Shown here in pieces: positions 32,080-48,748 of a stretch of 64,000 nucleotides of DNA. How positions within the stretch are numbered: position 1 is the stretch's first letter; every line of letters begins with the position of its first letter. The DNA lies in the IMG/VR virus record IMGVR_UViG_3300027708_000015. One strand, given 5' to 3'. The notes under the pieces are model-generated. The model worked only from the letters and a program-made list of their open reading frames with translations. It had not been told where the DNA came from and made no database searches. The position numbers were made by a program, and so were the translations under genes. Origin of the DNA: a virus. Lineage: Duplodnaviria > Caudoviricetes.

Positions 32080-32108
32080 TTCTGCTCCTAATTTTTTACT
32101 ATAAGTAT

Positions 32109-32137: not shown

Positions 32138-32143
32138 CCAATC

Positions 32144-33235
32144 TTATTTCTCTGTGGCTTGTGCAATATACTTACCAAACTTTTGGTGGAAAGCGTCAAA
32201 ACATTTAATTTCATCCGGATCTAATGGCAACTTATAAGTGCTTAGTGCCAATTTAGTGCCCATAATAACCAACTCAGTTTCGAAATTGTTCATCAAGAAT
32301 TCGAAAAAGTTGTTAGTCATGTCGTTCCAATTTTTGGCTTTCTTGTCACATGCGTCTTTGAGCTCGTAGCACAATGATACAGTCAATGAATACATTGCTG
32401 AAATTTCTTTCGAGTCCATTTTCTTAACCTTGCCTGACAAGATATCTTGCGGGTTAGGCATTTTGCTGGCATGTTTGCGGTGTGCCATAAACTTCACAGC
32501 CAGACCTTCACCTACAGAACCTGACACTAAATCGGTTAGTGTGTCATTGTCGCAGTCGTCATCTGTAAGCAATTCGCTAACGAACGACCAAGAGCGTGGA
32601 GTAGCAAATGAGCGTGAGCTAGATTTTGGATCAAAATCATACAAGTCTTTCTTGCTAAAGGTCAAGTATCCAATAACATCTGGATGGATATTGTTGTCTA
32701 CGGCCCAGTCAAAGTAGTCATCCCAATCTACAGCCATTTCCAAGTGAACAAAACGGTTTGCCAACGGACTTGGCATACGATATGATACACCTTTGTCTGT
32801 TTCACGGTTGCCTGCGGCAACCATCACTACATTGTCTGGCAGTTCATAAGTACCGCATTTACGATTAAGAACCAGTTGATAAGCCGCGGCTTGTACGCTG
32901 GGAGCGGCGCTGTTCAATTCATCCATGAACAAGATGATAGTTTTGTGATTTTTAGCAAACTCTTTGCTAGGCAATTCTGAAGGAGGAGCCCATTTCATTG
33001 TGCCATCGATTGAGTCAAAGTATGGAATACCTTTGATGTCTGTTGGTTCCCATAGACTCAAACGGATATCGATAACATGGGCATCAAGTTCTGTACCCAA
33101 TTGTTTGATAATATCTGACTTGCCAATACCCGGAGGACCCCAGATAAAGATAGGACGTTTTGTATTAAACGCCTTACGAAGACTTTTCTTTGCACCCTTT
33201 GGGCCTACTGTACGGGTTACTAGTTCTGATGCCAT
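32144..33235 (-). CDS. MoxR/dynein-related AAA+ ATPase
   Basis: Walker A GPPGIGKS, Walker B ILFMDELN, sensor AAGNR, LANRFVH, ATPRSW. Confidence 0.9.
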   Translation of the reverse strand: MASELVTRTVGPKGAKKSLRKAFNTKRPIFIWGPPGIGKSDIIKQLGTELDAHVIDIRLSLWEPTDIKGIPYFDSIDGTMKWAPPSELPSKEFAKNHKTIILFMDELNSAAPSVQAAAYQLVLNRKCGTYELPDNVVMVAAGNRETDKGVSYRMPSPLANRFVHLEMAVDWDDYFDWAVDNNIHPDVIGYLTFSKKDLYDFDPKSSSRSFATPRSWSFVSELLTDDDCDNDTLTDLVSGSVGEGLAVKFMAHRKHASKMPNPQDILSGKVKKMDSKEISAMYSLTVSLCYELKDACDKKAKNWNDMTNNFFEFLMNNFETELVIMGTKLALSTYKLPLDPDEIKCFDAFHQKFGKYIAQATEK

Positions 33236-34025: not shown

Positions 34026-34598
34026 CTATTCAGTGTATAAACCAGGCTTTAATTCAGTATCCATGTTCCATGAAATAATGGTTTTACGCTTTGTACTGCT
34101 GTTAATAGGTGCTCTATGTATAACATAACTTGGGAATGTTAAAATGTCGCCTTCTTTAACATCAAACTCTCCGATAGTAGTTTGATTGTATGGATCTATG
34201 AATTGTGTTTTAGGACAATCATACGGAAGTTCTAAGAAGTATACATTAGTCCAGTTGCTTCCGTGTACATGCCAACCGTGTAATGAATTTTGTTCATACT
34301 GCTGAAACCAAATTTCTCTAAGTTTAAATTCAGCATACCCTAACATATCGGTTACTTGCTGAAGATGTGCCAATAGTGATGGCTTAATAACTTGCAACCA
34401 GGGTCGATTGTAATCCCATCGACTAGTATTCCAGTCGCATCGGGTAATATCAACGGCGTCTTCAGTTTCAACTAATCGATCAAATTCTTTTTGATTGTTA
34501 ATCTCATTAAGGATTTGATTTTTAAGTTCTAAGTGGTCTTTGAATTCGCCAATAACATATGGGCTATTAAGATTTATTTTCTTCAAAGCCACCGCCAT
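34026..34598 (-). CDS. Putative 2OG-Fe(II) oxygenase
   Basis: HGWHVH, NVYFLE, EGDILTFPSYVIHRA, RKTIISWN: HxH...H...R pattern of a double-stranded beta-helix oxygenase. Confidence 0.7.
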   Translation of the reverse strand: MAVALKKINLNSPYVIGEFKDHLELKNQILNEINNQKEFDRLVETEDAVDITRCDWNTSRWDYNRPWLQVIKPSLLAHLQQVTDMLGYAEFKLREIWFQQYEQNSLHGWHVHGSNWTNVYFLELPYDCPKTQFIDPYNQTTIGEFDVKEGDILTFPSYVIHRAPINSSTKRKTIISWNMDTELKPGLYTE

Positions 34599-35339: not shown

Positions 35340-36326
35340 TCATTGTTGTGGATATTTGGCCTGGAATGGCTCTGCATACTGCTGAATGTTGTCTGAAATT
35401 TTCTTCATATCCCACGCATTACAGAACTTCAGCAAGCGAATTCCTACCTGATCTACCGCCTTGGGCACAGCATTAGACTGTACAGTTTCACGTATTTTAG
35501 CCTTGATCTCATCAGGTTGTGCTGTGAGATCGCATAGTTGTACATTGCGTTGATAGTCTTCCAACACACGATGTTCTAAACCGTTGTGGTCGACCCAACG
35601 TTGGAGCATGAGATTGTTCCAATTATATCCGCGAGTCTTACGATCGGAAAATGCCTCTTGGAGACCAACTTTATTCTTTGTGCCTTTCGTTCGTACACCT
35701 GGATAAGCCGAAAAGACATTGTCACTTGTGTCACCCCGCATGCATTTCTCGAACAGCATCCATTCTGGATCTTGTGCAGGCTTAGGCTCGCCAGTCTTTT
35801 TGTCTTTAACGGGTTTACCTTTAGCATCAAAGATTCCTTCGTGTGTAATATGCAAATCGCCAACACCATTATATTGGCTTACAGTAGGACTTACCAGCTG
35901 TGCAAAGTCTCCGTCTGTTGAGATAATAACATGTTTAGCATCTGGGTGTGCTTGGACCCAACCAGCAATTAGATCATCTGCTTCTAGATTAGGATGTTGC
36001 ATCACAGTAGCATTGGTCTTCTCTGACACGAACTTTTTAAATTCGTCAAATGCTTCCCAGAACAATTTGTCTTCTTCTTGCTGTCGCTCAGTCAGCGCAT
36101 CTCTTGCTTCTTGTCTATTGGCCTTGTAGGGCTTGTAATGATCTTTACGCCATGATCGACCTTCAAGGCAGAATACCACGTGAGTACCACCAAAGTCTTG
36201 CCATGCTTTCTTGATACTGTTAAAGGTAATATGAAAGGCCATACCCAGTTTGATGTCGCTGGAACCTTGCACCACATGTCTAGCACGAAAAAACGTGTTA
36301 GCAGTATCAACTATGATGTGTGTCAT
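35340..36326 (-). CDS. rnh: T4-type RNase H / 5'-3' flap exonuclease
   Basis: IIVDTAN, SWRK...YKANR, LEADDLIA, ISTDGDF, GDTSDNV motifs of the FEN/PIN 5' nuclease family. Confidence 0.9.
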   Translation of the reverse strand: MTHIIVDTANTFFRARHVVQGSSDIKLGMAFHITFNSIKKAWQDFGGTHVVFCLEGRSWRKDHYKPYKANRQEARDALTERQQEEDKLFWEAFDEFKKFVSEKTNATVMQHPNLEADDLIAGWVQAHPDAKHVIISTDGDFAQLVSPTVSQYNGVGDLHITHEGIFDAKGKPVKDKKTGEPKPAQDPEWMLFEKCMRGDTSDNVFSAYPGVRTKGTKNKVGLQEAFSDRKTRGYNWNNLMLQRWVDHNGLEHRVLEDYQRNVQLCDLTAQPDEIKAKIRETVQSNAVPKAVDQVGIRLLKFCNAWDMKKISDNIQQYAEPFQAKYPQQ

Positions 36327-36736
36327 TCTATTTGTGCCCTACCATTTGGTAATCTACTTACATTAATATAACCACCGATTGTACGACTTGGGTTAGTCTG
36401 TCCAGCTTCGGCTAGCATATTGCCTGCCAAATCTCTAAACCAACGATCTACAATCTCTTCTTCTGGATCACCTTCAAATCCGTATCCAGCTTCCCTTAAT
36501 TGTACTATAAACTCTGGGTTCCAGTCAAGTTCAAAAAAGCCATTCCGTACATTATCCTTGTTGACATGTGTGTCCAGCACAGCAACCCACGGCTCGCCTC
36601 GCTGTGTGGCACGTTCTTTCGGACCCATTTTAGCATTTTCTTCTGCTTTCTTTGCTTCAGCGGCTCCGGCCAGTGCCACTTCTTTTTCTTTTAGAATATC
36701 ATCGATACCTAGCCATTTTCTTAATAATTGTTTCAT
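36323..36736 (-). CDS. Hypothetical protein
   Basis: 137-aa ORF (GEPWVAVL...NGFFELDWN...DRWF). Confidence 0.6.
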   Translation of the reverse strand: MKQLLRKWLGIDDILKEKEVALAGAAEAKKAEENAKMGPKERATQRGEPWVAVLDTHVNKDNVRNGFFELDWNPEFIVQLREAGYGFEGDPEEEIVDRWFRDLAGNMLAEAGQTNPSRTIGGYINVSRLPNGRAQIE

Positions 36737-36870
36737 TTGGTGTCCTTACAATCACAATCTCTACCTTGTCTACAATTCCCAGTACAGGCACTGTTGATAT
36801 TTTTTGGCCATCTTAGGCATAATGCTATCAATATAGCCCAACCAACTATAAAGCAAAATAGAAAAAACAT
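36733..36870 (-). CDS. Small membrane protein with Cys-rich tail (45 aa, not in the ORF track)
   Basis: Hand-translated MFFLFCFIVGWAILIALCLRWPKNINSACTGNCRQGRDCDCKDTK; GGAG RBS 6 nt upstream; stop overlaps the next ATG. Confidence 0.65.
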   Translation of the reverse strand: MFFLFCFIVGWAILIALCLRWPKNINSACTGNCRQGRDCDCKDTK

Positions 36871-36880
36871 TTTCATCTCC

Positions 36881-37048
36881 TTATATGCCCAATCGGCCTA
36901 TAAACCATTTTTTGGCAAATTTACTATAGCGAACTAGATAAATTTTTTTATTCCATTTTAGTCTTAAACCAATACTGCTCATACTAGACAAAGGATAAAA
37001 ATTTATGCCGTTATCTAATTTATCACCCTCATGTCTAAAGTATATCAT
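36881..37048 (-). CDS. Small hypothetical protein (55 aa, not in the ORF track)
   Basis: MIYFRHEGDKLDNGINFYP...; ATG overlaps the queE stop (TAATG). Confidence 0.55.
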   Translation of the reverse strand: MIYFRHEGDKLDNGINFYPLSSMSSIGLRLKWNKKIYLVRYSKFAKKWFIGRLGI

Positions 37049-37902
37049 TAGGTTCCCCATTCGTTCTTGAATAACGGCACTTGTAAACGGTCGCTGTAAC
37101 GCAGTCCGTGTTTCATAGCCGCCACTGCTACTGCACGATTGTTCAATGCGTATACGCTTTCAACTCCGCCAATGGGCATTAGATAACAATGTCCTGTAAA
37201 GCCGTTTTCTCGATAGATATCCAATGTTTCAATTGCTTCTTCAATATCGTCTTCGGTAGCAACTACAAATTTGAGATAAGTGTGTCCTATATCTTGATAT
37301 TGCAACAGTACTTCTGGTTTGATAGCTTCATCTCTACTTTCGCCTGAACAACTTAATTTGGCACTGACACTAAATGTAACTTCACGAACTTTAAAATCTT
37401 CAGGAAATTGCCACTTCATTAAGTAGTCTTCAAATTCTTTAGTCAAAGATTGAGTGCCATTTGTTTCAAATGTAATTTCTTGTAAGTCTGCCATGCGAGG
37501 ATGATCTAATAAATCTGGATAAGCCTTTTGCCAACCCAGCAACGGTTCACCGCCAGTTATAACAAGATGTGCATCTTGCCATTTGTTTTCGGGAAGTATC
37601 TCCATTGTGCGTTCTACAATAGCATCAGTAGTCAGCATTGGGCTAAGATTCTTAAAGCGTGGATCCCAACTGGCATAGCTGTCACATCCTGTACTAACAA
37701 GCGGTAGTTCTTTGTAGTCATTGAACATGTGTACAACTTCAGCAATATCTTCAACTTCTTTGCTTAGTTCACCTTTGGGCATACCAAAGCCTGCACATTT
37801 AAAATTACAACCAAATGTACGCAAGAAAACAGACGGTACACCCATGTAACGTCCTTCACCTTGGATACTATAAAATAATTCTGCTATTTTAATTTTACTC
37901 AT
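37048..37902 (-). CDS. queE: 7-carboxy-7-deazaguanine synthase (radical SAM)
   Basis: IAELFYSIQGEG...PSVFLRTFGCNFKC...CDS (CX3CX36C), VITGGEP, ITFETNGT, SVSAK, RYSDRLQ. Confidence 0.92.
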   Translation of the reverse strand: MSKIKIAELFYSIQGEGRYMGVPSVFLRTFGCNFKCAGFGMPKGELSKEVEDIAEVVHMFNDYKELPLVSTGCDSYASWDPRFKNLSPMLTTDAIVERTMEILPENKWQDAHLVITGGEPLLGWQKAYPDLLDHPRMADLQEITFETNGTQSLTKEFEDYLMKWQFPEDFKVREVTFSVSAKLSCSGESRDEAIKPEVLLQYQDIGHTYLKFVVATEDDIEEAIETLDIYRENGFTGHCYLMPIGGVESVYALNNRAVAVAAMKHGLRYSDRLQVPLFKNEWGT

Positions 37903-38297
37903 TCACAATCACCTTGTTCTGCTAATTTTGTTACTTTAGCACGTTCTGCCTTGTTTTGTCTAGTATTACGAAAAGATTCTACATCTTCCACTGCACTTAG
38001 TAATGTATTAGCATAATTGAATGCCTGTTGTCGACTCATTATCACAGTGGATTCTGTGTCAATATAGCCTTTGGTCAACAATGTCCAAACAGCATGCCAG
38101 CGAGTTTTACTCCACCAGTTGCTTTTTACAGTTGTATAGATAGTAACACTAACTTCGTGATCATCAGCTTCTACCCATACATGATGATCGTGATCCGATG
38201 CACCGCAGTTACATGTAACACGATAAACTTTTGAGTCTCCCCAATCGTTTGTTTGCATTATGCCTTCGGCAGGTACTTGTATTTCTAATGATTTCAT
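37899..38297 (-). CDS. Hypothetical protein between folE and queE
   Basis: 132-aa ORF with CxCxxxxH motif (CNCGASDH). Confidence 0.6.
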   Translation of the reverse strand: MKSLEIQVPAEGIMQTNDWGDSKVYRVTCNCGASDHDHHVWVEADDHEVSVTIYTTVKSNWWSKTRWHAVWTLLTKGYIDTESTVIMSRQQAFNYANTLLSAVEDVESFRNTRQNKAERAKVTKLAEQGDCE

Positions 38298-39049
38298 CTC
38301 GGAGCAAACTCCTGTTGCATTTTGATATTGTCAAAAAATTCTTTCTTTGTTCCTGGATCGGTATTAAAAGCACCTTTGAGTACTGTAGTCTGTGTTAGAC
38401 TAGAGTGCGCCATAATGCCACGATTCTCACAGCATCCGTGTACAGCTTGAATGTACACACCTAGGTCTGTGGCTCCTGTGGCTTTAGCAATTTCTCTTGC
38501 GATGTCGTTGCACAGTTCTTCCTGTAAAGTACCACGCCGAGCACACCACTGAGCAATGCGAGTATACTTAGACAAACCAATGAGCTTCTCGGCAGCGATG
38601 ATTCCAATATATGCAACTCCGCTAACTGGTTGATGATGATGAGAACACATACTGCGGAGTTCACTGCGAACAACGAGCATGCCTTCATAACGGTCTGCCG
38701 AATCATTTGGAAATGCTGTTGCGTCTGGTGCTGATTCATATCTTCCTGCCATTATTTCATTAAAGTACATCTTGGCCAAGCGTCGGGCTGTGCCTTTGCT
38801 GTTAGGATCGTTTTCACGATCAATTAACAAGCAATCTAACACTTTTTCAAATGCTAGAGTTGTTTCATTAATTAAATCTTCTTTCATTTTATCATCAATA
38901 TATTCACTGATGTTATCTCCAGCCCAGAACCTTTTACCATTACGTTTCATTACAAAACCTAAATAGTTGTGTGCAGTGCCTTCTTGATATCCGCTATCGC
39001 CGTACATGGCGTCAAGTGCTGTTTCGTTGTATGTTCTTGATTCTGTCAA
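38294..39049 (-). CDS. folE: GTP cyclohydrolase I
   Basis: GTARRLAKMY, SMCSHHHQP, GLSKYTR, LQEEL, HGCCENRG; annotated start is TTG with GGAG RBS. Confidence 0.95.
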   Translation of the reverse strand: MTESRTYNETALDAMYGDSGYQEGTAHNYLGFVMKRNGKRFWAGDNISEYIDDKMKEDLINETTLAFEKVLDCLLIDRENDPNSKGTARRLAKMYFNEIMAGRYESAPDATAFPNDSADRYEGMLVVRSELRSMCSHHHQPVSGVAYIGIIAAEKLIGLSKYTRIAQWCARRGTLQEELCNDIAREIAKATGATDLGVYIQAVHGCCENRGIMAHSSLTQTTVLKGAFNTDPGTKKEFFDNIKMQQEFAPR

Positions 39050-39088
39050 TTTTATTCTCCGAGTTAGTGACGTGGATGTCTTAGTACT

Positions 39089-39117
39089 ACTATATAGGTT
39101 TATTTAGGTTTTTGCAA
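39089..39117 (-). promoter_or_regulatory. Sigma70-like promoter (TTGCAA-N17-TATAGT) with a late-type CCTAAATA inside the spacer
   Basis: Minus strand TTGCAA aaacctaaataaaccta TATAGT upstream of folE. Confidence 0.55.
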
Positions 39118-39128
39118 ATATTTTGTGT

Positions 39129-39386
39129 TCAAATTTTTTCTGATATCAGTACTTTGCATAAAGTAGCATCTATCTCTGACTTGAAGTAAAAATCCATTTT
39201 GTCATGACTGGGGTGACTGGTGTATCTATTTCCAGGTAATCCAAAGACGTCTAATACATCTGCGCAGGTATCGTTCCACCAGTATTCTTTCTGTCCACGC
39301 CATGGGATACTTACAACATGTGTGTATCCTGCATCACGTGCAGGAATACGACTGTCCCAATTGCGATGTTTTTTACTGCCCTTCAT
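39129..39386 (-). CDS. Hypothetical protein (likely start MKGSKK at 39386)
   Basis: ORF track 39129-39425; the upstream 52-aa gene overlaps, which favours the second ATG. Confidence 0.5.
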   Translation of the reverse strand: MKGSKKHRNWDSRIPARDAGYTHVVSIPWRGQKEYWWNDTCADVLDVFGLPGNRYTSHPSHDKMDFYFKSEIDATLCKVLISEKI

Positions 39387-39531
39387 GCTTCTTGGCCTCT
39401 GCAATTTCGTACTGCAGATATTCAATGTAGGACATCAATGCTTCGCGCCCTCTTTCAGTAGGCATTTTTAAAGTGTCTTCAGTAGCTTGTTTGAGTTTAT
39501 CTTCAAGCTCTTGTACAGATAAACTTTTCAT
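39373..39531 (-). CDS. Small helical hypothetical protein (52 aa, not in the ORF track)
   Basis: MKSLSVQELEDKLKQ...YIEYLQYEIAEAKKHEGQ; ATGA overlap with the upstream gene. Confidence 0.55.
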   Translation of the reverse strand: MKSLSVQELEDKLKQATEDTLKMPTERGREALMSYIEYLQYEIAEAKKHEGQ

Positions 39532-39773
39532 TTTCTAGTTCCAAGTTTAATAATACTGCTACCGCCAAACAAGATATTAAAAGCCAACCAAGTTTGCCAA
39601 GTCAACTGTATATTTAGGTACTGCGGAAACAAAGTGTTCAACGCCCAAATACCTATGATAGGTCCAAAAGCAACGGCAACTACAATTAATGCAATACCAA
39701 AGCCAAGTTTAATTAGTGATCCAGTTAATGATGTCATTTCCAAAATTCCTCCCAAGGATAAACGAGCCAGCAA
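39528..39773 (-). CDS. Small two-helix membrane protein
   Basis: Two hydrophobic stretches (FGIALIVVAVAFGPIIGIWALNTLF; WLAFNILFGG). Confidence 0.55.
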   Translation of the reverse strand: MLARLSLGGILEMTSLTGSLIKLGFGIALIVVAVAFGPIIGIWALNTLFPQYLNIQLTWQTWLAFNILFGGSSIIKLGTRK

Positions 39774-40222
39774 TCTTCTTCTGCTTTATTGACTTCCCAA
39801 TAGGTATAATCAACATCCTGGTTGCTAGATAGATTGTTGGTCAATGTAGCAAACCGAACATTTTGTCCCCAGATATTGTTCCATTTGGGATCATCGGGAA
39901 GCGCACTGGATTGCCAATCGTGCTTGATCCATTCAATTGTGCTGCCTTGGTCATTGATATCGTCAACAACCAAAATGTTTACACCATTGAATGCATCTTC
40001 TGCCATTCCACAATCACTTACACAAATGCCGCCGTCTCTCAGGCTGACCATAAGTGTGGCCATGGGAATATCTAAATATTGACTGATCAAGTTAGCGGGT
40101 ACTAGCCCACCTCGATTAAGACCAACTATGTATTTTGGTAACCAATTATCTTGAACCATTTGACGAGAAAGGTCTAAACAACCACCTTCTACTTGTTGCC
40201 AAGTGTAGTATATTTTCTTCAT
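39734..40222 (-). CDS. gpt: Type I phosphoribosyltransferase (xanthine/guanine PRTase-like)
   Basis: IVGLNRGGLVPA, PRPP-binding loop ILVVDDINDQGST, WLVYPWE C-terminus. Confidence 0.8.
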   Translation of the reverse strand: MKKIYYTWQQVEGGCLDLSRQMVQDNWLPKYIVGLNRGGLVPANLISQYLDIPMATLMVSLRDGGICVSDCGMAEDAFNGVNILVVDDINDQGSTIEWIKHDWQSSALPDDPKWNNIWGQNVRFATLTNNLSSNQDVDYTYWEVNKAEEDCWLVYPWEEFWK

Positions 40223-40437
40223 TGCAGTATCGCTGGTGTAAATTTTTTAACTTGTGTTCTACTAGCTGAAATATTGTCAACCATTGCATTGTAGTCAATT
40301 TCGTCTAGCCCTGATTTGTATATGCTTAAAGAAATAGCCATCATAACAGCGGCAACTTCCATAGCACCGTATTTCTCAACCATACCGTCGGCAATACCCA
40401 AATATAAATCGTATAATTCTTGTAAATTATCGCTCAT
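40219..40437 (-). CDS. Hypothetical protein (likely start MSDNLQ)
   Basis: ATGA overlap with the upstream stop. Confidence 0.5.
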   Translation of the reverse strand: MSDNLQELYDLYLGIADGMVEKYGAMEVAAVMMAISLSIYKSGLDEIDYNAMVDNISASRTQVKKFTPAILQ

Positions 40438-40664
40438 GCTGTCAATGCCTGTGCAAGAGTTGCCATTTCTTCTTTGGTCATAAAGAAATTGTATACAGCA
40501 GTATCTGTGATTTTGCCGTCTTTCAAACATTGCTGTTCCATATCAACACTGAACAAGCCTTTAGGCATGAGTACTTCATGTTTTTTCAACACAAGGCGGA
40601 ACCCTTCGTGTTCTTTAATAATTGTTTCTGTGTAGGTATCTTTGATCGATTCATGTAGTTTCAT
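40434..40664 (-). CDS. Hypothetical protein (likely start MKLHES)
   Basis: Part of the track ORF 40434-40706. Confidence 0.5.
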   Translation of the reverse strand: MKLHESIKDTYTETIIKEHEGFRLVLKKHEVLMPKGLFSVDMEQQCLKDGKITDTAVYNFFMTKEEMATLAQALTA

Positions 40665-41076
40665 TGTCAGTTCCTTTAATTGCATGCCACATTCTGTATT
40701 TGGCAAGTTCGTTTATATAATCGTAGTACATTTTTTGTAGCTTGGGATGCTTCTTTTCAAGTATAACATCTCGTTCTGGAATTTGCAATACCTTTTCGAT
40801 TGTGTTTAACCGTTCTTCTAAATTTCGTCCGTTAATTACTAGATCACCTTTGACGTCAAGTGTAGGCTGACTTTTGCCTGCATTAACAGTCAACACTTGG
40901 TCGTAGTTGTTGAGTGTCGCCCAATTGACAGTACCGGTTCCTGTAGTTGTGTAAACTTGTCCGCTCAACTGCGGAGGTACGGCTCCGTATCCAGATAAAG
41001 TAGTGGCAACGGTATTAACCGTTTTGTTTACGGGAAGCGAGATAGTTGTCATTGTGTATCCATTTATTATCGACAA
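40651..41076 (-). CDS. Hypothetical protein with T/G-rich N-terminus
   Basis: 141-aa ORF; C-terminal LDVKGD...LEERL...LEKKHPKL. Confidence 0.55.
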   Translation of the reverse strand: MSIINGYTMTTISLPVNKTVNTVATTLSGYGAVPPQLSGQVYTTTGTGTVNWATLNNYDQVLTVNAGKSQPTLDVKGDLVINGRNLEERLNTIEKVLQIPERDVILEKKHPKLQKMYYDYINELAKYRMWHAIKGTDNETT

Positions 41077-41494
41077 GGAATCCCCATTGTCGTTTGTGTG
41101 GGCCCGGCATAAACAATGTCCATGCTGTAACGCCTGGTTTTAATTCTACTCGATGATAGCTGTTGGGCCTGCATATACGGAAATGCCCAGGACCACGCCA
41201 TTTACGAATTTCACAACTTTTAGTTCCATCTGGATTGAATTGGGGGATCCATTCATAATAACCGCCAGCTAAAATAAATGTAGCATATGACCATGGGTGA
41301 TCATGCACATCGTCTGGATCGCCTTTTAGAAACTTGTGAATGTAGATATTGAATCCAGTGTGGTATCTGGTATTGAATAATGGATAGTAACGTTCCAAGT
41401 ATGGCTCGTTATCCACACGATCCATGATCACACGTTTACGGCCTTTGCTATCAAGCCAATTAAGGAAGCGGTCTCTGATCTTCTGGAGTATCAT
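41015..41494 (-). CDS. RmlC-like cupin domain protein
   Basis: HDHPWSYATFILAGGYYE and HRVEL cupin motifs 1 and 2. Confidence 0.75.
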   Translation of the reverse strand: MILQKIRDRFLNWLDSKGRKRVIMDRVDNEPYLERYYPLFNTRYHTGFNIYIHKFLKGDPDDVHDHPWSYATFILAGGYYEWIPQFNPDGTKSCEIRKWRGPGHFRICRPNSYHRVELKPGVTAWTLFMPGPHKRQWGFLVDNKWIHNDNYLASRKQNG

Positions 41495-41831
41495 AATGGT
41501 CTTTTACTAGTTTATATGTTGTCTTAAATTTATCAAATGCTATTTTTAATGCTGGGTATTCTTTACACATTGTCTGGATTCTATTCCAGTCGGGAAAACA
41601 GCCATCCCATTCTTCAGGTGCACTCCAACTGAATCCACTACCGGCACCACCAATAGTGAATCCTGTACTAGAACTGCTAGTACCGCCACTACTGATAGTT
41701 ATTGTACCACTGTTGGACCCACCCATACCTGCACCTGTAGTATAATAGTAGCTGTCACTGGTACTATTACTAATGGTGATAGTATCAGTTGATGTGATCG
41801 AGTAATTTGTTAGCACTGAAGAAGTTGTCAT
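41460..41831 (-). CDS. Hypothetical protein with S/T/G-rich N-terminus
   Basis: 123-aa ORF; C-terminal MCKEYPALKIAFDKFK. Confidence 0.55.
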   Translation of the reverse strand: MTTSSVLTNYSITSTDTITISNSTSDSYYYTTGAGMGGSNSGTITISSGGTSSSSTGFTIGGAGSGFSWSAPEEWDGCFPDWNRIQTMCKEYPALKIAFDKFKTTYKLVKDHYDTPEDQRPLP

Positions 41832-42885
41832 GCAGATCCCTTGTCTGTTTACGTATGGCAGGTATCCTTGTAGAATAATTGTCCATATGTTCTATAATCT
41901 TACGGCACAAATCTGGGCGATACACAGTGTATGTATCATAATCATTTGTCCATACGCTGGGATATTTGAATGTGTCGTAATACATTTCACTGTAACTAAG
42001 TCTATCTGGAACCATTGGTATAGCATCTACTACTGCACCTTCGTAACAACTGATGCCCAGCGTTTCTTGCAGATTGGCACTGAATACCATTTTTGCTTCG
42101 CCTAACAAGTTGTGATATTCATTTTTTGTTAACTGTTGATCCTGACACACTACAAATTCATACTGAGGCAAATGATGTGCTAAGTCTCTAAAAATCTCAA
42201 CTTGTTTTTCTGGGGCAATACGATGTGGAAAAAGAATAAGGTCACGTTTGGGCATATTCTTGTACATGGTCAAGGTATCGTCCATATACTCCATGGGCCA
42301 ACCTGTGCGTACAAATTTATCACTAAATGTGCCAGCACGTAGTTCTGCTAGATCGTCCTCAAACCAAGGATTCTCTGTTGGATAATCATTTAATAGATTG
42401 GTAAAGAATAATTCAATGTGAAACTGTGTAGCAAAGTAATTATAATCAAATGCGTAGAAGAAACTCTTCTCTGCATGACGTACCCAGGGTTTAGCACCAA
42501 CCAGTCGACCCAAGAAGTCTTGAGGATCATAACTACCAGCATGCCATAGGCCATGCGTAGTTACTGGTATATTCAGCAACTCACTCATGTACTTTAAGTT
42601 TATGATGCCAGGGTGCCAAGCATCAGTAAAGATGAAGTGATCATTAGGATTAATTGATCCGGAGCAAAATAAGCGGCCAATCTTCTCAACTTGACTAGCC
42701 TTGTAAATATTGGTGCCGCCAAAATTAAGAAAAGCACCAGGAGTAGTGGCTTTAGGAATATCCTCAGGGCCAGAGATAATTTGAACATTGTGTCCTGCCT
42801 TGCGTAAGAGATTAGGTACATGGCGTTTCCATTCGCCAGTGTACCGTGTGTCAACAGCTTCTAGATCAACTAGGAATACGGTCAT
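41785..42885 (-). CDS. GT-B fold (GT4-like) glycosyltransferase (likely start MTVFLVD at 42885)
   Basis: FTDAWHPG, HAGSYDP, ILFPHRIAPEK donor-binding motif, QETLGISCYEGA (E-x7-E), PMVPDRLSY. Confidence 0.85.
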   Translation of the reverse strand: MTVFLVDLEAVDTRYTGEWKRHVPNLLRKAGHNVQIISGPEDIPKATTPGAFLNFGGTNIYKASQVEKIGRLFCSGSINPNDHFIFTDAWHPGIINLKYMSELLNIPVTTHGLWHAGSYDPQDFLGRLVGAKPWVRHAEKSFFYAFDYNYFATQFHIELFFTNLLNDYPTENPWFEDDLAELRAGTFSDKFVRTGWPMEYMDDTLTMYKNMPKRDLILFPHRIAPEKQVEIFRDLAHHLPQYEFVVCQDQQLTKNEYHNLLGEAKMVFSANLQETLGISCYEGAVVDAIPMVPDRLSYSEMYYDTFKYPSVWTNDYDTYTVYRPDLCRKIIEHMDNYSTRIPAIRKQTRDLHDNFFSANKLLDHIN

Positions 42886-43126
42886 TGCTATTGTACCGTG
42901 GATTCTTACCGAGGTAAGGTTTACGTTCGCCTGTGAACGGCTTTTTAGGACGACGACTCTTGTCGAAGTTGCGCCACTGCCAGCTTTCTCTATTGTAGAG
43001 ATGACCTTCGTTAAACTCACAAAGTTCTGAACGGCACCAGTTATGGAATGCCTCTAGATCTTCGAACAGTTTTACAATGTCCGGACGAGTTGAAAAGTAA
43101 CTGACTTCTTTGTAATTCTTAGCCAT
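42866..43126 (-). CDS. Small basic hypothetical protein (likely start MAKNYK)
   Basis: R/K-rich C-terminus; overlaps the GT start. Confidence 0.55.
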   Translation of the reverse strand: MAKNYKEVSYFSTRPDIVKLFEDLEAFHNWCRSELCEFNEGHLYNRESWQWRNFDKSRRPKKPFTGERKPYLGKNPRYNSNDRIPS

Positions 43127-43139
43127 AATAGCCTCTATT

Positions 43140-43535
43140 TTAATATTTGATAAATGAACCATTTTCTCCATCTTCGGAGACCTCAATCCAAACCTCACGG
43201 CCTGGATACTTTGCTGAGATAGCGTCAAACAAATCGCCTGACATCATCTCACAACTTTTGTAGTCTAACGCCAGTATACTATCTTTATAAAGATTTAGCA
43301 ACCATCGTTTGAACTGAATAAACTCAATATCACGATCGTCATGTGTAACACTTATCCATACTTTGAAATGGAATATATGACGATGCGGAGAAGCCAAAAA
43401 CGACACATCATATTCATCCCCTGTTGCTAGGGTAGGATCGGTAGCTGCCGCTGGATATGCATGGATTCCTTCTTTGCTAAATGTGACCCAAATCATTTTG
43501 TTAGGTCTAATGTCTTGTCGTATTGTAATGTTCAT
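43140..43535 (-). CDS. QueD-like T-fold protein with LxxxHRHxF motif (QueD substitute or DpdL-like CDG decarboxylase)
   Basis: EGIHAYP, FLASPHRHIFHF, RDIEFIQFK, SCEMM, VSEDGENG pattern of a tunnel-fold enzyme; sits in the deazaguanine cluster. Confidence 0.7.
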   Translation of the reverse strand: MNITIRQDIRPNKMIWVTFSKEGIHAYPAAATDPTLATGDEYDVSFLASPHRHIFHFKVWISVTHDDRDIEFIQFKRWLLNLYKDSILALDYKSCEMMSGDLFDAISAKYPGREVWIEVSEDGENGSFIKY

Positions 43536-43951
43536 TGTGCAGGTTCCCATAGTGAGCCAGGTAGTTCAATTTCGTAAGAATATCTGTTTAGATGATGTTT
43601 ACTTTGTATTGTAACATGAGCATGACAGTTTTTGCAAAGTATTTCTTTATTGGCTGGATCATTGTTATGACGATTTCCGTCTATATGATTTATGTCCAAC
43701 TGTTCAGGATACATGATGGTTGCTGTACACTTGAATCCGTGATGTGCATCTACGTTTGAACACCCTTGTTTTAATTTCCAATTATCCACTTCTGATTTCC
43801 TTTCATTTCTATGAGACTCACAACAGTTTTTCCATTTGATATTTGCAGACCCATCTTTTCCTTTATCTAAGTTATGATAACTTACTTTTGATGCACAGTC
43901 TGGTGCCGAGCATACTGGTGCATAGTTGTTGTATGGAGACCGTTTTCTCAT
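43532..43951 (-). CDS. HNH endonuclease-like protein with Cys-rich N-terminus
   Basis: LDINHIDGNRHNNDPANKEILCKNCH is an HNH motif; CxxxxC and CC upstream. Confidence 0.75.
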   Translation of the reverse strand: MRKRSPYNNYAPVCSAPDCASKVSYHNLDKGKDGSANIKWKNCCESHRNERKSEVDNWKLKQGCSNVDAHHGFKCTATIMYPEQLDINHIDGNRHNNDPANKEILCKNCHAHVTIQSKHHLNRYSYEIELPGSLWEPAQ

Positions 43952-44499
43952 TTTATAATCTCGTCTTTCGTATATTCATCCCAATTGGTAAAATACTTGC
44001 GTTGTGTGACAGCACCAATTGGTACACACCACACCCCTGGATTAGTTGCATCAAAGTCTTTGTCATCGATCTTGATTGTAGCATTATATCCTAGCTGATT
44101 TAGATAAGGCAATTTTACACTAATTTGTGGAATAAATCTACGATGTTCGGTTAAACCACTTTCTAAAAGACCTTCATGTTCACGTATATCAAAGTCCAAG
44201 GTACACCAATATCCAGCTTCTAAACAGTCCTGGATCATGTATTCCCATGGGCGCCAAGTGTCTACATCATTCACGCCATTAGTTTTGAAACTTTGATTAG
44301 CACCAAAATAGATATGTTTGATACGTTTGCTCTCGTCTAACAGTGCTTGGGTATCGTTAACAATATGTAACACAGTCTTAGGATCATGTACACCTACTAC
44401 AAACAGAGTTTTCATTCCGTATGCAGGAGTGCGTTCAATTTCAGTACCAACAAAGAATGTTACATCTTCGCTAGTACCACTAGTATATTCACGTTTCAT
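43948..44499 (-). CDS. Conserved deazaguanine-cluster protein, possibly DpdM-like
   Basis: FFVGTEIERTPAYGMKTLFVVG...HIYFGANQSF; lies two genes downstream of the TGT-like gene. The DpdM resemblance is from recall only. Confidence 0.4.
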   Translation of the reverse strand: MKREYTSGTSEDVTFFVGTEIERTPAYGMKTLFVVGVHDPKTVLHIVNDTQALLDESKRIKHIYFGANQSFKTNGVNDVDTWRPWEYMIQDCLEAGYWCTLDFDIREHEGLLESGLTEHRRFIPQISVKLPYLNQLGYNATIKIDDKDFDATNPGVWCVPIGAVTQRKYFTNWDEYTKDEIIK

Positions 44500-44749
44500 T
44501 TGTAAATTTTTTCCCTTCTTCCCAGTATTTGATCATACGTTGTACATCTTCCATGCGTTCTGTTACAACCTCTGGAGCGGCACGTTCCAATTCTTTCATG
44601 TTGTGATAACTGGGATAGTGACGTAAACACCAACGTGCTCGTTCACGGATTTCTTTAGGCAGACGCGGGGTTTTTTGAGGATTCATTAGATCCTGTAAAA
44701 ACTCTTCTGTTTTTTGTATGCTTCGAAATCTTTCATCTGGTAATGTCAT
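44489..44749 (-). CDS. Small conserved protein (BPSL0761-like)
   Basis: MTLPDER...TPRLPKEIRERARWCLRHYP pattern. Confidence 0.6.
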   Translation of the reverse strand: MTLPDERFRSIQKTEEFLQDLMNPQKTPRLPKEIRERARWCLRHYPSYHNMKELERAAPEVVTERMEDVQRMIKYWEEGKKFTNET

Positions 44750-46456
44750 TTAAACCTCAAATAGTGATTCGTTTAAGATTGGTTTTGTAGGTTCTTTGAC
44801 AACTTTTTCCATAGTCAAGTCTCCTTCAAATTCGATATGCACATTGGCCATGGTGGTTGCATTAGTGATACGATCACCAGTATTGCCTCTAGTACCGATA
44901 ATACGATCAAAATAGCCTTCGTAGTGTTCTACTACATCCATTGCATCTTTTCTATTATCCATGCTAAAGATCAAATCAACAATGTCTTTGAACTTGTTGG
45001 GTAATGGACTATAGTCCATAGTTCTACCTTCTGCTGTGGTAGCACTCATCATTGCTGGAATACAACCTAGGTCGCTTTGACGATTGGCTTCTTGTACAGC
45101 ATTAATATGCATCCAAACATTATGCCCCATCATGATAGCATAAGTGAAGCTATCCCAACTGGTACGTCCTTCTTTACCAACTTTGTTTACATCGCCTGGT
45201 GCGTAGATACAAATTTCCTTCATTTGTATTTGATCCATGATAGGACTAGATTCAAACTTGTCAAATATGCCATCTTGTACCACTGCATCTTTGAACAGTC
45301 TAGTATCCGACGAATACTTTTTATCATCAGCTGATGCTTGCATACGATACACCCATTTGTCTGCTGGCGGCGTTTCTGTAGCCATATAAATCTGTCCATT
45401 GGCAGTTGCTAAGAATGGACTAGCACAGTCGAAACTGATAGTAAAGTCTGGATTATGATACTTGCGTACAGCACGTTGGATATCTGTTAGTAGCACTGCC
45501 CATTCTAATTTACTGGTACCTAAAAAGTGCATCCAATCTTGGTGTCCTTGTTCCAACAATCCATCAAAGCGCAGTGCTACTAATCGTTTGAGAATCAAGT
45601 GAACATCACACATGTTTTGTCCACCCATACCCCAACCGTTGAATGGCTTGTCGTATTTGGTTGGATCGCAAAAGTCTTTCATTTGCTGATACCAATCTTC
45701 TGCTTGTGTGTGACTCTCACCTTGTAGCACGTTCAAAAACTTACATGCACCTGTACGATTTTTAATAAAGTATTCATTATTGTACTTGGTAGCATCTGCG
45801 GCCTGCTGATATGTTTCTATGCCTGTGGCCTTGCGTCCTTCTGGACTGCGTTCTACCCAAGCTGGAATATCAAGAACCATTCCGTATTCCATGTAAGCAT
45901 CCATCCATGCCAGCACTTGTTCACGTTTTTTCTGTGCGGCATCGAGTCTGGCTTGATACAGTTTAGGATGATCTACTTTGGTAAATTTAGGATTACCATT
46001 TTTATCAGTCTTTGGATGGCCTGTAGGATGTAATTGCGGAACCAGTTCAACACCTAAGGCATTAACTTCGGCCCACTTAGCGGCAACTTCGGGTCCAGTA
46101 GGGTCTCGCCATTCGCCTTCCCACACACCTTTACCAATCTGGAATCCGCCTGAATCTCCAACTACCCAACTAGTGGAGCGATCTCGATTACGGAACATAT
46201 CTTCACTGTCGTCCTTCTTAGTCATGTCTAAGTTAGCATGACCTGCTGAGTACAAGCAATGATCATAGTAGAATATCGCATTGGGATTGAGATAGTTCAT
46301 AGCTTCAATTCCTAACGGTCCAAAACTTGCCGGAATACGAGCTGGATCTACATACGGTCCAAAACGTTGTTTGCCTATGAACGTACTATAAAACCCAGAC
46401 GTAGCTGGCAAAAAGTACGCATAGTCCGATTGAGTTGCTGTTAAATTTTTATTCAT
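44750..46456 (-). CDS. dpdA: TGT-family guanine transglycosylase, DpdA(2)-like DNA 7-deazaguanine insertase
   Basis: VGDSGGFQIG (catalytic Asp motif), MVLDIP, LNVLQG, GWGMGG, MHFLGTS, ISFDCASPF; co-located with folE, queE and a T-fold gene. Confidence 0.85.
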   Translation of the reverse strand: MNKNLTATQSDYAYFLPATSGFYSTFIGKQRFGPYVDPARIPASFGPLGIEAMNYLNPNAIFYYDHCLYSAGHANLDMTKKDDSEDMFRNRDRSTSWVVGDSGGFQIGKGVWEGEWRDPTGPEVAAKWAEVNALGVELVPQLHPTGHPKTDKNGNPKFTKVDHPKLYQARLDAAQKKREQVLAWMDAYMEYGMVLDIPAWVERSPEGRKATGIETYQQAADATKYNNEYFIKNRTGACKFLNVLQGESHTQAEDWYQQMKDFCDPTKYDKPFNGWGMGGQNMCDVHLILKRLVALRFDGLLEQGHQDWMHFLGTSKLEWAVLLTDIQRAVRKYHNPDFTISFDCASPFLATANGQIYMATETPPADKWVYRMQASADDKKYSSDTRLFKDAVVQDGIFDKFESSPIMDQIQMKEICIYAPGDVNKVGKEGRTSWDSFTYAIMMGHNVWMHINAVQEANRQSDLGCIPAMMSATTAEGRTMDYSPLPNKFKDIVDLIFSMDNRKDAMDVVEHYEGYFDRIIGTRGNTGDRITNATTMANVHIEFEGDLTMEKVVKEPTKPILNESLFEV

Positions 46457-46694
46457 CTTTTGTCTTTACCCACATTTCGTAGTATGGATCATATCTCCAC
46501 CCTTCTGGCGGTTCACACGGATCATAGTTTTGTGGATGTGTAAATGGCGTTTTCGCAGGTGAGTGTCGTTTTTTATATCCTGTTCGAATATAGTCACGCA
46601 CTAACTCGTCTGCGTATTGATCCGCCCAAGTGCTTTCCTGTATAATCATTTGATCCAGTGCTGTGCTAGAACCATTAAGCTCAACCATGCCCAC
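46449..46694 (-). CDS. Hypothetical protein
   Basis: 81-aa ORF ending PPEGWRYDPYYEMWV; the true start is probably internal. Confidence 0.45.
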   Translation of the reverse strand: MGMVELNGSSTALDQMIIQESTWADQYADELVRDYIRTGYKKRHSPAKTPFTHPQNYDPCEPPEGWRYDPYYEMWVKTKDE

Positions 46695-46999
46695 ATGGTA
46701 TTAAATCCTACCAGCGTGGGCAATGCTTTTTTACGGCTTGCCCAAATAAGTGTTACGCTGGTTAGCAGTGTTAGGTAATACAATTCCCATATTTGAATAC
46801 CAAAGATTAAACCTGGGATAATGATGATGGCTTTGGCCAACCAACTGACAAATTCTACAGTATTATATCCTGTCCAGTATTCTCGTGTAAACCACATACC
46901 GTAACATTCTCTCATATTGCGCCATCCAGTATGCGTATAGCAAATAGCCATCAATACTAACCATACACCTACTGCTAAAAAAATTTGATCTTGTGTCAT
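46646..46999 (-). CDS. Multi-pass membrane protein
   Basis: Four hydrophobic segments in 117 aa. Confidence 0.65.
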   Translation of the reverse strand: MTQDQIFLAVGVWLVLMAICYTHTGWRNMRECYGMWFTREYWTGYNTVEFVSWLAKAIIIIPGLIFGIQIWELYYLTLLTSVTLIWASRKKALPTLVGFNTMWAWLSLMVLAQHWIK

Positions 47000-47199
47000 T
47001 CTATTTTACCCCATTTAATTTTAAGCCAGATTCTTTCATGTATATAATAATCTATACTTAGGAGAATATGTAGCACAGTGGCAAATCCTGTAGCACTTCC
47101 TAAGTCTCCTGTGAACAAGTATGTCCACAGGATTGTGAATACCCATGCTGTTAAGCGATAGGTAATCATTCTCACAACTGTTCGTTTACGTGTTTCCAT
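46996..47199 (-). CDS. DUF2061-like small membrane protein
   Basis: ETRKRTVVRMITYR...YYIHERIWLKIKWG pattern. Confidence 0.7.
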   Translation of the reverse strand: METRKRTVVRMITYRLTAWVFTILWTYLFTGDLGSATGFATVLHILLSIDYYIHERIWLKIKWGKIE

Positions 47200-47930
47200 T
47201 ATTTGCTTTGCGCTGGCAGGATATATTCGTATACAGCAACTCCACTGTCAATAGTGATAGCCAATGCACCTGCATCTGCAATCTTCATAGTGATATCGCC
47301 TGACAGTGCCAAAATTGCTTGCACAGCATTAACTGGCCATGACCATGTTTGCTTTAGCTTGCCTGTAATCCCACTTTGGAAAGTAAATGATCCTGCGTGT
47401 GTGCTGGCGTCGCCGAAACTAAACACTAGATTGCTACCATTCGTGGACACTTGGAACACCTGTTCTTCAGTATGTGCCGCCGCCTGATACTTCAAGCGTT
47501 GGATACTTGATACAGTAGGCTCAAATTCAACTTCCCAACTTGTTCCTTTGAACTTGACAGTCTTGAGTTTTTCATTGATCACATCTTGATTCATAAAACG
47601 ATAGTCGTTTTCAAAGTCACCAGTTGCATTTTGAAAATGCAAACCTGTTGGAATATCTTCACCATTGCGTTGTTGTTTTACAACCTTGATGCCGGCACCT
47701 TCTTTGTATTCTGGACATTTCAAATGCAAGTCTAGCTTGTTCAAATTAGGCATACCAAATGTGCCTTCAAGTCCGTCGATTGGATTGTGTGATTTGGCAT
47801 TAAGGATAACTGAACGGTCTTCAGCAAGCGATTCTATAGTGGTTGCTTTTGAGCTGGATGTTACCTTGACCAAAGGTAAGAAGCCCAAACTGTGTGTATG
47901 TGCTACTAGGTCTTGTAAAAAGTCTTTCAT
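47199..47930 (-). CDS. DNA polymerase sliding clamp (gp45/PCNA-like)
   Basis: 243 aa with a two-fold alternating alpha/beta pattern, FGMPNLNKL, C-terminal YEYILPA; lies next to the DNA polymerase. Confidence 0.7.
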   Translation of the reverse strand: MKDFLQDLVAHTHSLGFLPLVKVTSSSKATTIESLAEDRSVILNAKSHNPIDGLEGTFGMPNLNKLDLHLKCPEYKEGAGIKVVKQQRNGEDIPTGLHFQNATGDFENDYRFMNQDVINEKLKTVKFKGTSWEVEFEPTVSSIQRLKYQAAAHTEEQVFQVSTNGSNLVFSFGDASTHAGSFTFQSGITGKLKQTWSWPVNAVQAILALSGDITMKIADAGALAITIDSGVAVYEYILPAQSK

Positions 47931-47950
47931 ATGATTCTCCGTGTTTAATG

Positions 47951-47979
47951 ATTATATAGGGTTTGTGTGACTATGTCAA
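47951..47979 (-). promoter_or_regulatory. Perfect sigma70 consensus promoter for the clamp/dpdA operon
   Basis: Minus strand TTGACA tagtcacacaaacccta TATAAT. Confidence 0.85.
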
Positions 47980-48747
47980 TGTTTTTCTTATCTTCTTGTT
48001 GTATTTTATTGCCGATTCTACCAGGGTATTTGATACAGATAGCTTATCGGCGTACTGTATAAATGCGTTTATGTCTTTGGGAAAGCAAGCACCCCCAAAT
48101 CCTCGAGCTCCGTCTGGTCCCGGAACTTGCATATGACTACGTCCAATTCGATCGTCTAATTGTAGTAGACCAACAACAGTGGCATAATCTATATTGTCTG
48201 CTTGACACATATCATATAGTTGATTAAAAAATGTAACTTTGATACTGAGAAACGCATTAATGGTATATTTCATCATGGCCGCTTCACCCAATGTGCAATA
48301 GAACGCTGTTTTCAACTTTGGCAGAGACTGTCTGAATAGGCTGTGCCAAAATCCATTAGGATCATCACCGCCTAGAATCATATTTTGTTGATTAGCAAAG
48401 TCTTGATCGGCAGTGGCCGCACGTAGAAATTCTGGACTGTAACATATTTTATGATTGGGGTAGTCTTTGACCAGTTTATTTAGGTAATCCGGCCTCACAG
48501 TGGATTTAATCAGTACAGGTATATGACTGGGTGTTTGATCCATTACATCATAAATTTGGCTAGTATCACAATCACCCAGTACTGTACTGGGTGTGCTGAC
48601 ACAAATTATAACGCCATCGGCATCTGGATAATCTTTTACTGTTTGCGTACTTATTTTTGGATCAACAACATATACTGTGTTTGTTTTATCTATAGCAGTA
48701 GCAACTGCTTTGCCCACAAATCCATAACCTGCAATTATAATTTTCAT
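47971..48747 (-). CDS. UDP-glucose/GDP-mannose 6-dehydrogenase family (lacking the C-terminal domain)
   Basis: GYGFVGKA Rossmann motif, ICVSTP, IKSTV, SPEFLR, KYTINAFLS, GFGGACFPKD catalytic Cys; start MKIIIAG at 48747. Confidence 0.88.
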   Translation of the reverse strand: MKIIIAGYGFVGKAVATAIDKTNTVYVVDPKISTQTVKDYPDADGVIICVSTPSTVLGDCDTSQIYDVMDQTPSHIPVLIKSTVRPDYLNKLVKDYPNHKICYSPEFLRAATADQDFANQQNMILGGDDPNGFWHSLFRQSLPKLKTAFYCTLGEAAMMKYTINAFLSIKVTFFNQLYDMCQADNIDYATVVGLLQLDDRIGRSHMQVPGPDGARGFGGACFPKDINAFIQYADKLSVSNTLVESAIKYNKKIRKTLT

Positions 48748-48748
48748 A

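Follow-up and report, generated by a model that had tools for sequence, protein, structure and literature searches.

Introduction

To our knowledge, eight 7-deazaguanine bases have been found in phage DNA and none of them bears a sugar. Cellulophaga phage phiST encodes FolE, QueD, QueE, DpdL and DpdA3, and every G of its DNA is replaced by 2′-deoxy-7-deazaguanine (dDG) (PMC10516641). DpdL, a paralogue of QueD, is recognised by its motif: where QueD has CxxxHGH, DpdL has LxxxHRHxF (Cui et al. 2023, PMC10516641). Acidovorax phage ACP17, which is T4-related, carries a cluster of QueD, FolE, ASD50402, DpdA3, ASD50404, DpdL and QueE. DNA of PA5oct (Wroclawvirus), a jumbo phage of Pseudomonas, is resistant to five restriction enzymes; the pattern of resistance suggests modified G, and the phage is restricted by nucleases that sense this kind of base (PMC12191111); a literature search for the identity of the PA5oct base found nothing. 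The present study concerns a related locus in the IMG/VR virus record IMGVR_UViG_3300027708_000015, a stretch of 64,000 nucleotides that we refer to as the window and that comes from the genome of a T4-related jumbo phage of freshwater lakes. Positions 37048–46456 (minus strand) of the window hold a gene module for the predicted modification of DNA with a 7-deazaguanine base.

The module encodes FolE, a QueE-like enzyme, a DpdL homologue and a candidate transglycosylase of 568 residues that is related to DpdA3, together with a GT4-like glycosyltransferase (GT). A preliminary description of the window had placed queE, folE, T-fold, tRNA-guanine transglycosylase (TGT)-family, GT-B glycosyltransferase, purine phosphoribosyltransferase (PRTase), cupin and HNH genes in this interval, and all of them are present. 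The same description called the gene set non-standard. This is justified for the company of the GT, which is undescribed, but FolE, QueE, DpdL and DpdA3 without QueC constitute a published system of the dDG type (PMC10516641). We favour the explanation that the module is a QueC-less, DpdA3/DpdL-type 7-deazaguanine DNA-modification system in which the GT belongs to the same pathway, and give this explanation as a whole an even chance. Its parts differ in strength. Replacement of G in the phage DNA by a 7-deazaguanine, as had been proposed before, is very probable and is well supported by homology and by the predicted fold. A 7-deazaguanine (DG)-type scaffold made via DpdL is, on motif and homology, rather probable. 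The arguments for and against a role of the GT in the deazaguanine pathway are evenly balanced, and a sugar on the final base is a tentative proposal that we place somewhat below that.

A DpdA3-related transglycosylase candidate

The 568-residue protein matched nothing in Pfam, PHROG or NCBIfam. Fifty-five diverse homologues with 27–58% identity were aligned (alignment A1). In sequence searches of the PDB the single protein gave no match, and the 55-sequence profile gave three non-significant chance matches with E values of at least 0.38. An AlphaFold (AF2) model computed from A1 reached a predicted local distance difference test score (pLDDT) of 89.7 and a predicted template modelling score (pTM) of 0.88. 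The best 50 Foldseek matches to this model were all TGTs (E 4e-8 to 5e-7, probability 1.00). VIA-align superposed it on bacterial, archaeal and human TGTs with Z scores of 18.5–19.9 over ∼300 residues and root-mean-square deviations (rmsd) of 4.2–5.0; the best match was 2ash_B (Z 19.9, rmsd 4.2, 304 residues aligned). By its modelled fold, the protein is a member of the TGT superfamily.

Ten columns are invariant in A1, among them D101, S102, G104, D196, H310, G313 and D343. These seven residues line up with four blocks (DSGG, D, HxLG and DS) in the DpdA3-type proteins of phiST, ACP17, BUDD and BCSR5. We take the D101, D196 and D343-type acidic residues to be the counterparts of D102, D156 and D280 in the Z. 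mobilis TGT, an assumption that does not draw on a residue-level superposition. The TGTs that act on tRNA carry a Zn site formed by a Cys/His cluster. No cysteine is invariant or nearly so across A1, and the Zn site of the tRNA enzymes is therefore not kept.

Comparison of A1 with a set made up of the ACP17, BUDD and BCSR5 proteins and phiST CGPG_00065 (hhalign) gave a probability of 97.8% and an E value of 1.3e-12 over 175 columns, and pairwise BLAST between the 568-residue protein and the DpdA of ACP17 was not significant. Judged by this profile homology, the protein is related to the DpdA3 group but long and divergent, and would form at most a remote, long branch of it. Homology to the group (phiST CGPG_00065 and its relatives) is accompanied by the gene company of FolE, QueE and DpdL without QueC, to which the near-complete relative G001 (see below) adds QueD. 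Bacterial TGT and the DpdA/DpdB system share with the protein the TIM-barrel TGT fold and the conserved acidic residues. Unlike them, it escapes PF01702, has no conserved Zn-site cysteines and contains insertions of ∼200 residues; a DpdB-like ATPase was not found among the module genes. The family is large: its database homologues number more than 6900 and fall into 875 clusters at 50% identity, and most come from metagenomes of lakes and other aquatic habitats. One of three distant transglycosylase representatives examined (L091) lies on a contig with an open reading frame (ORF) of 243 residues, the DpdA-like gene and a cut ORF of 355 residues; the first and last of these may be homologues of the clamp and the GT.

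A DpdL homologue in a proposed pathway without QueC

Residues 52–60 of the T-fold protein read L-A-S-P-H-R-H-I-F, which is exactly the DpdL motif, and all six DpdL homologues compared keep H56 and H58. The protein is 53% identical to ACP17 ASD50405, which has the same motif (E 8e-44), and 30% identical to the founding DpdL, phiST CGPG_00067, in a tblastn search over phage records (E 2e-6). It matches phrog_17812 and no Pfam family, PF01242 included. Alignment to QueD profiles with hhalign was weak (50.7%, E 1.6e-4) and covered the C-terminal 40 columns only. The T-fold assignment is tentative and draws mainly on the published HHpred result of 99.9% for the relation of phiST DpdL to T-fold/PTPS proteins (PMC10516641). 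On its motif and its homologues, the gene is identified as DpdL and not QueD.

The QueE-like radical S-adenosylmethionine (SAM) enzyme, predicted to be the synthase of 7-carboxy-7-deazaguanine (CDG), matched five QueE models of NCBIfam with E values of 1e-9 to 1e-13, all below the cut-off. All six phage QueEs compared, that of the window and five others, have C32, C36 and C73. The cysteine spacing of these enzymes is CxxxC followed, after ∼36 residues, by a further C, and the usual compact radical-SAM motif is absent; the six may form a distinct cluster-binding variant.

Family searches covered ∼60 ORFs of the window, that is, all of at least 60 residues except a 4457-residue ORF (55–13428) and a few of 67–85 residues. 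None matched the PTPS/QueD, QueC or QueF families, in agreement with the earlier statement that no canonical queD, queC or queF can be recognised there. That description had pointed to the rest of the genome for such genes. As a stand-in we used the IMG/VR relative G001 (356 kb, rated 96% complete), whose transglycosylase is 75% identical to that of the window: it encodes a canonical QueD (CxxxHGY) at a distance of ∼50 kb from its module and has no QueC. QueD is also present and QueC absent in PA5oct (which has two QueD copies), Phosso and ACP17. The presence of QueD and the absence of QueC in these relatives therefore suggest that the pathway stops at CDG and continues via DpdL, as in phiST.

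A GT4-like glycosyltransferase gene conserved near the transglycosylase gene

The start of the GT gene was placed at 42885 because a database entry of 366 residues is 100% identical over 98% of the 375-residue query. The protein has RxxxEK and Ex7E donor-site motifs; across six phage lineages (nine sequences), R222, E226, K227, E274, G277 and E282 do not vary. A profile search against the PDB retrieved GT4-type chains only, and these weakly, with WlaC best at E 2e-4 and the rest at E values of at least 0.1. Atlas neighbours of the protein carry PF00534, homologues are annotated as GT family 4, and 24 phage records contain a homologue.

The position of the gene is conserved. It directly adjoins a DpdA3-type gene in ACP17, PA5oct, BUDD and BCSR5, whose DpdA proteins are very divergent, and in Phosso it is placed within the FolE/QueE cluster, with DpdL on one side and FolE on the other. 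For metagenomic comparison we used 80 related loci, 19 of which are long IMG/VR relatives with enough flanking sequence. In the window and in all 19 long relatives the GT is three genes away from the transglycosylase. ORFs of 86 and 183 residues, DpdL and a small basic ORF are found between the two, to which the window adds a mobile HNH gene. Module gene order is likewise conserved in all 19, and the arrangement is therefore not due to chance.

The preliminary description had also suggested that the accessory genes might produce a new derivative. The GT4-like gene, a conserved neighbour of this DpdA clade in several unrelated phages, is an argument for this possibility. The cupin, HNH and PRTase genes lend it little support, because the first belongs to a common family, the second is a mobile insert and the third is more simply explained by guanine salvage.

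Comparison with known systems

Like phiST, the phage has FolE, QueE, a DpdL with LxxxHRHxF, a TGT-derived enzyme of DpdA3 type, no QueC and adjoining replication genes. Unlike in phiST, where the transglycosylase has 259 residues, it has 568 residues here, and the two are similar at the profile level only. phiST is without a GT4-like gene, the 183-residue protein, a PRTase and a gene resembling nucleoside diphosphate (NDP)-sugar dehydrogenases, all four of which are found in the window. The window cluster, in contrast to that of phiST, contains no QueD.

ACP17 likewise has, around a DpdA3-type gene, homologues of the 183-residue protein, of the GT (ASD50404, 34% identity) and of DpdL (53%). 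The 183-residue protein is 31% identical (E 8e-12) to ASD50402, which is encoded directly upstream of the ACP17 DpdA3. In contrast, the ACP17 DpdA has 424 residues and is not detectable by BLAST from the 568-residue protein, and no PRTase, cupin or dehydrogenase-like gene is annotated in the ACP17 cluster. PA5oct (EST35_0314-0322) shares PolB, clamp, DpdA-like, GT, DpdL, PRTase, QueE and RNaseH-like exonuclease genes with the window, in unchanged order and with identities of 32.5% for the DpdA-like protein, 43% for the GT (EST35_0317) and 53% for DpdL. It differs in having HFH in DpdL where the window has HRH and a gene resembling short-chain dehydrogenases/reductases (SDR) at the position of the window's cupin; there is no FolE within the PA5oct stretch compared.

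The α- and β-glucosyltransferases of T4 act on 5-hydroxymethylcytosine (hmC) in DNA. Like them, the GT of the window is a phage enzyme of putative GT-B type encoded near base-modification genes, and its proposed transfer of a sugar after replication would shield the DNA from restriction. This is a functional analogy only: no sequence similarity to the T4 enzymes was detected, the acceptor would be a deazapurine derivative and not hmC, and action on DNA is putative.

Proposed pathway and alternatives

From the gene identities, the fold, the homology and the conserved linkage we infer the chemical steps, the DNA substrate and the sugar as follows. FolE would convert GTP to dihydroneopterin triphosphate (H2NTP), a canonical QueD encoded outside the window would produce 6-carboxytetrahydropterin (CPH4), and QueE would yield CDG. 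The DpdL homologue would then convert CDG, most likely by decarboxylation to 7-deazaguanine. After replication, the 568-residue TGT-fold enzyme would exchange guanine in DNA for the 7-deazaguanine base, and the Gpt-like PRTase would most likely return the excised guanine to the GTP pool. In the reading we prefer, the GT would glycosylate either the inserted base or a precursor of it. The 183-residue protein would probably act in the same pathway as the GT, and the short NDP-sugar-dehydrogenase-like protein may shape the sugar donor. The outcome would be DNA that resists restriction enzymes. In its most specific form, namely that the GT4-like enzyme glycosylates CDG-derived 7-deazaguanine in phage DNA, with the base itself or the product of DpdL or of the 183-residue protein as acceptor, the proposal is tentative and we would rather expect it to fail than to hold. 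The GT may instead be needed for the exchange in another way, or may be unrelated. A literature search for a sugar-bearing deazaguanine found no description.

A number of points weigh against the explanation that we favour. PF01702 matched only two of the 55 homologues of the 568-residue protein (best E 0.043) and not the protein of the window itself, and a search of G001, PA5oct, Phosso and ACP17 with this model gave no match. As a single sequence, the GT matched neither Pfam (Glycos_transf_1) nor NCBIfam. The dehydrogenase-like protein, whose TIGR03026 match spans model positions 66–298 of 413, retains the NAD domain and the central domain but not the C-terminal NDP-sugar domain, which is likewise missing from the dehydrogenase-like ORFs (262–294 codons) of 62 relatives. 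The CDG decarboxylase activity of DpdL is a prediction (PMC10516641), and DpdA3 plus DpdL of phiST or ACP17 produced no dDG in E. coli, from which it was suggested that further enzymes may be necessary (Cui et al. 2023, PMC10516641). Judged from its chemistry, 7-deazaguanine offers no obvious hydroxyl to a GT4 enzyme as sugar acceptor. The DpdL phages phiST, RHph_I1_18 and probably Ahp1 are without the GT, and a distant relative of the GT in Xanthomonas phage PhiXhv-15 (L093, 3669–6903) has an amino-sugar context in which no deazaguanine genes are annotated nearby. These last points speak for plain dDG as in phiST, which is fully dDG-replaced without a GT; the GT and the dehydrogenase-like, cupin and 183-residue proteins would then be neighbours that serve, for example, the modification of the host envelope or of phage proteins. 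The cupin family, which is common in phages without deazaguanine genes, fits this alternative as well. We consider plain dDG possible but doubtful, as the GT adjoins a DpdA3-type gene in four cultured lineages with very divergent DpdA, lies near the transglycosylase with the order kept in the window and its metagenomic relatives, and is present in ACP17, which gave no dDG from DpdA3 and DpdL alone.

Two further explanations concern the transglycosylase. The PRTase could make a deazaguanine nucleotide that is reduced, phosphorylated and incorporated by PolB, with the TGT-like protein in a minor or proofreading role. The retention of a purine PRTase in the module here and in PA5oct, the embedding of the module among replication genes and the complete replacement reached by DpdA3 phages are in line with such a pre-replicative route. 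It is nevertheless improbable: the transglycosylase shows no variation at its catalytic Asp positions, family searches of the module proteins found no module-specific kinase or dGTPase, the PRTase is missing from four of the 19 relatives that retain everything else, and none is annotated in the ACP17 cluster. According to published work, moreover, all deazaguanine phages have a DpdA, and insertion is proposed to follow replication. That the TGT-like protein acts on host or phage tRNA and not on DNA is suggested by its fold, which is that of a tRNA-guanine transglycosylase. We regard this as very improbable indeed in view of the homology to a DpdA3 group tied to fully modified phage DNA, the lost Zn site without an invariant Cys, the modification of PA5oct DNA itself and the location of the gene among replication genes.

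DpdA3/DpdL is the least understood branch of deazaguanine modification, its decarboxylase being only predicted and its reconstitution having failed. A GT4-like enzyme encoded near a long, Pfam-invisible DpdA3 relative in unrelated phages may supply the component that is missing, and perhaps a new base. If our preferred reading is correct, this base would be the first deazapurine with a sugar to be described from any genome. It would be shared by a very abundant lineage of lake jumbo phages and by the cultured phages PA5oct, ACP17, BUDD and BCSR5, and it would account for the failed reconstitution of DpdA3 and DpdL in E. coli. PA5oct and ACP17, which are in culture and have the trio of DpdA-type, GT and DpdL genes, make the reading directly testable. 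PA5oct is also a therapy candidate that is targeted by modification-sensing nucleases. In so abundant a family, the modification would have consequences for the sequencing and cloning of the genomes and for restriction-based methods applied to them.

Accessory sets differ among the DpdL phages. In Xanthomonas phage BUDD, a gene annotated as belonging to the 3′-phosphoadenosine 5′-phosphosulfate (PAPS)-reductase family (L089, 5401–5895) separates FolE from the GT and DpdA3-type genes, and BUDD may make a different 7-substituent. Rhizobium phage RHph_I1_18 has a macro-domain (Appr-1-p processing) protein (L094, 6408–7232) right after a DpdL that is 60% identical to that of the window, and no GT. 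The GT relative of PhiXhv-15 has a GlmS-like aminotransferase and an LmbE/BshB-like deacetylase as neighbours. The annotation shows no deazaguanine gene within 6 kb of it, and it may be part of a different sugar-based modification.

Other genes of the module

Coordinates of the module genes and of the genes between the module and PolB are given in Table 1. The xanthine/guanine-type PRTase is closest to the xanthine PRTase family PRK09177 (E 4e-12, below cut-off). It is present in 15 of the 19 long relatives, and PA5oct has a PRTase-like gene at the equivalent place; its role is most likely guanine salvage, returning GTP to FolE. In four relatives (L016, L017, L021 and L073) the dehydrogenase-like gene is found inside the module beside FolE, where the PRTase otherwise sits.

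Table 1. Positions of the predicted genes in the window, in order of transcription
Feature	Length (residues)	Position	Strand	Basis or remarks
PolB		48749–51418	−	
Short NDP-sugar-dehydrogenase-like protein	∼258	47971–48747	−	TIGR03026 (E 1.2e-42); PF00984, PF03721
Protein read as sliding clamp	243	47199–47930	−	Position
DpdA3-related 7-deazaguanine DNA transglycosylase candidate, TGT fold	568	44750–46456	−	Model and profile homology
Conserved protein	86	44489–44749	−	19/19 relatives; no family match
Conserved alpha/beta protein	183	43948–44499	−	19/19 relatives
HNH endonuclease		43532–43951	−	Weak HNH_3 and HNH PHROG matches
DpdL homologue, QueD-paralogous T-fold protein, proposed CDG decarboxylase	136	43140–43550	−	Motif and homology
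Small basic protein between DpdL and GT	∼100	42866–43228	−	19/19 relatives, median identity 67%; no family match
GT4-like (GT-B type) glycosyltransferase	366	41785–42885	−	Motifs and profile
Conserved protein, Ser/Thr/Gly-rich N-terminus	123	41460–41831	−	16/19 relatives
Cupin-like protein	159	41015–41494	−	phrog_4786 'cysteine dioxygenase' (E 1.2e-37)
Conserved protein, Thr/Gly-rich N-terminus	141	40651–41076	−	19/19 relatives; no family match
Xanthine/guanine-type PRTase	162	39734–40222	−	PF00156 (E 5e-11)
FolE, GTP cyclohydrolase I (domain residues 52–243)		38294–39049	−	PF01227 (E 2e-37); NF006824 (E 5e-38)
Cys/His-rich protein between QueE and FolE	132	37899–38297	−	No family match
QueE-like radical SAM enzyme (CDG synthase)	284	37048–37902	−	phrog_2076 (E 2.9e-51); PF04055 (E 1.5e-6)

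For the 183-residue protein an AF2 model was obtained with pLDDT 70.7, in which the conserved C-terminal third is modelled poorly. Its best structural matches were STAS-like and QueE chains (Z 5.6–7.1) and an Atlas QueE cluster (template modelling score 0.55), all within background. A QueE-like protein without the cluster was considered and dropped, the hhalign probability against phage QueEs being 0.3%. DpdM (preQ1 methyltransferase; DUF3109/YkgJ-type metal-binding family) was also rejected, since no Pfam match was found even at E 1 and the pathway is without preQ1. Single-sequence searches of the PDB with the 132-residue protein, the 136-residue DpdL, the GT and the 183-residue protein gave chance-level matches only.

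The cupin gene is present in all 19 long relatives. Members of its family are common among phages of Mycobacterium, Burkholderia and Gordonia, with no deazaguanine context in the match table. A role as a deazaguanine-specific tailoring enzyme was rejected because of this spread, and the function of the protein is probably not module-specific. The HNH gene, between the 183-residue gene and DpdL, is a mobile, homing-type insert outside the pathway: only 6 of the 80 related loci have it, and the 19 long ones are all without it. The 132-residue protein occupies the same position in 13 of the 19 long relatives and is not similar to the QueD of ACP17. The C-terminal motif of the 123-residue protein resembles that of PA5oct EST35_0319.

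Occurrence and genomic setting

DNA near-identical to the window was found in freshwater and lake metagenomes of several years. Two lake metatranscriptome libraries contain short contigs identical to it, which occupy 25–26 of 30 bins of positions 36000–49000. They are suggestive of expression of the module, with DNA carry-over possible. Megablast of the 9.4-kb region against phage records gave no match.

All genes between 36.3 and 51.4 kb lie on the minus strand, and the module is flanked by PolB and the clamp on one side and by a 5′-3′ exonuclease on the other. In the direction of transcription, PolB is followed by the dehydrogenase-like gene, the 243-residue protein, small membrane proteins and the 568-residue protein; the 86- and 183-residue ORFs, HNH, the T-fold protein, the small basic ORF and the GT; the 123-residue ORF, the cupin, ORFs of 141, 90 and 103 residues, the PRTase and small ORFs; and FolE, the 132-residue ORF, QueE and the 5′-3′ exonuclease. 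The 243-residue protein was read as a sliding clamp because PA5oct and Phosso carry a clamp gene in the same position. Replication-type genes of the window comprise family-B DNA polymerase, ThyX and the 5′-3′ exonuclease, and profile searches identified a gp9/10-like baseplate protein and a tail-collar domain.

Upstream of the T4 gp9/10-like and tail-collar genes lies a single ORF of 4457 codons (55–13428, plus strand), presumably for a giant structural or fibre protein. The replication and modification block is bracketed by two genes for PF13759 2-oxoglutarate (2OG)-Fe(II) oxygenases (34026–34598 and 51495–52079, minus strand). A MoxR-type AAA ATPase is encoded beside a DUF2201 metallopeptidase/VWA protein (30895–33235, minus strand); the pairing of a MoxR ATPase with a VWA protein is typical of MoxR-VWA systems. 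The late-gene block includes a ferritin-like protein (PF00210, E 3e-22; 59201–59644, minus strand).

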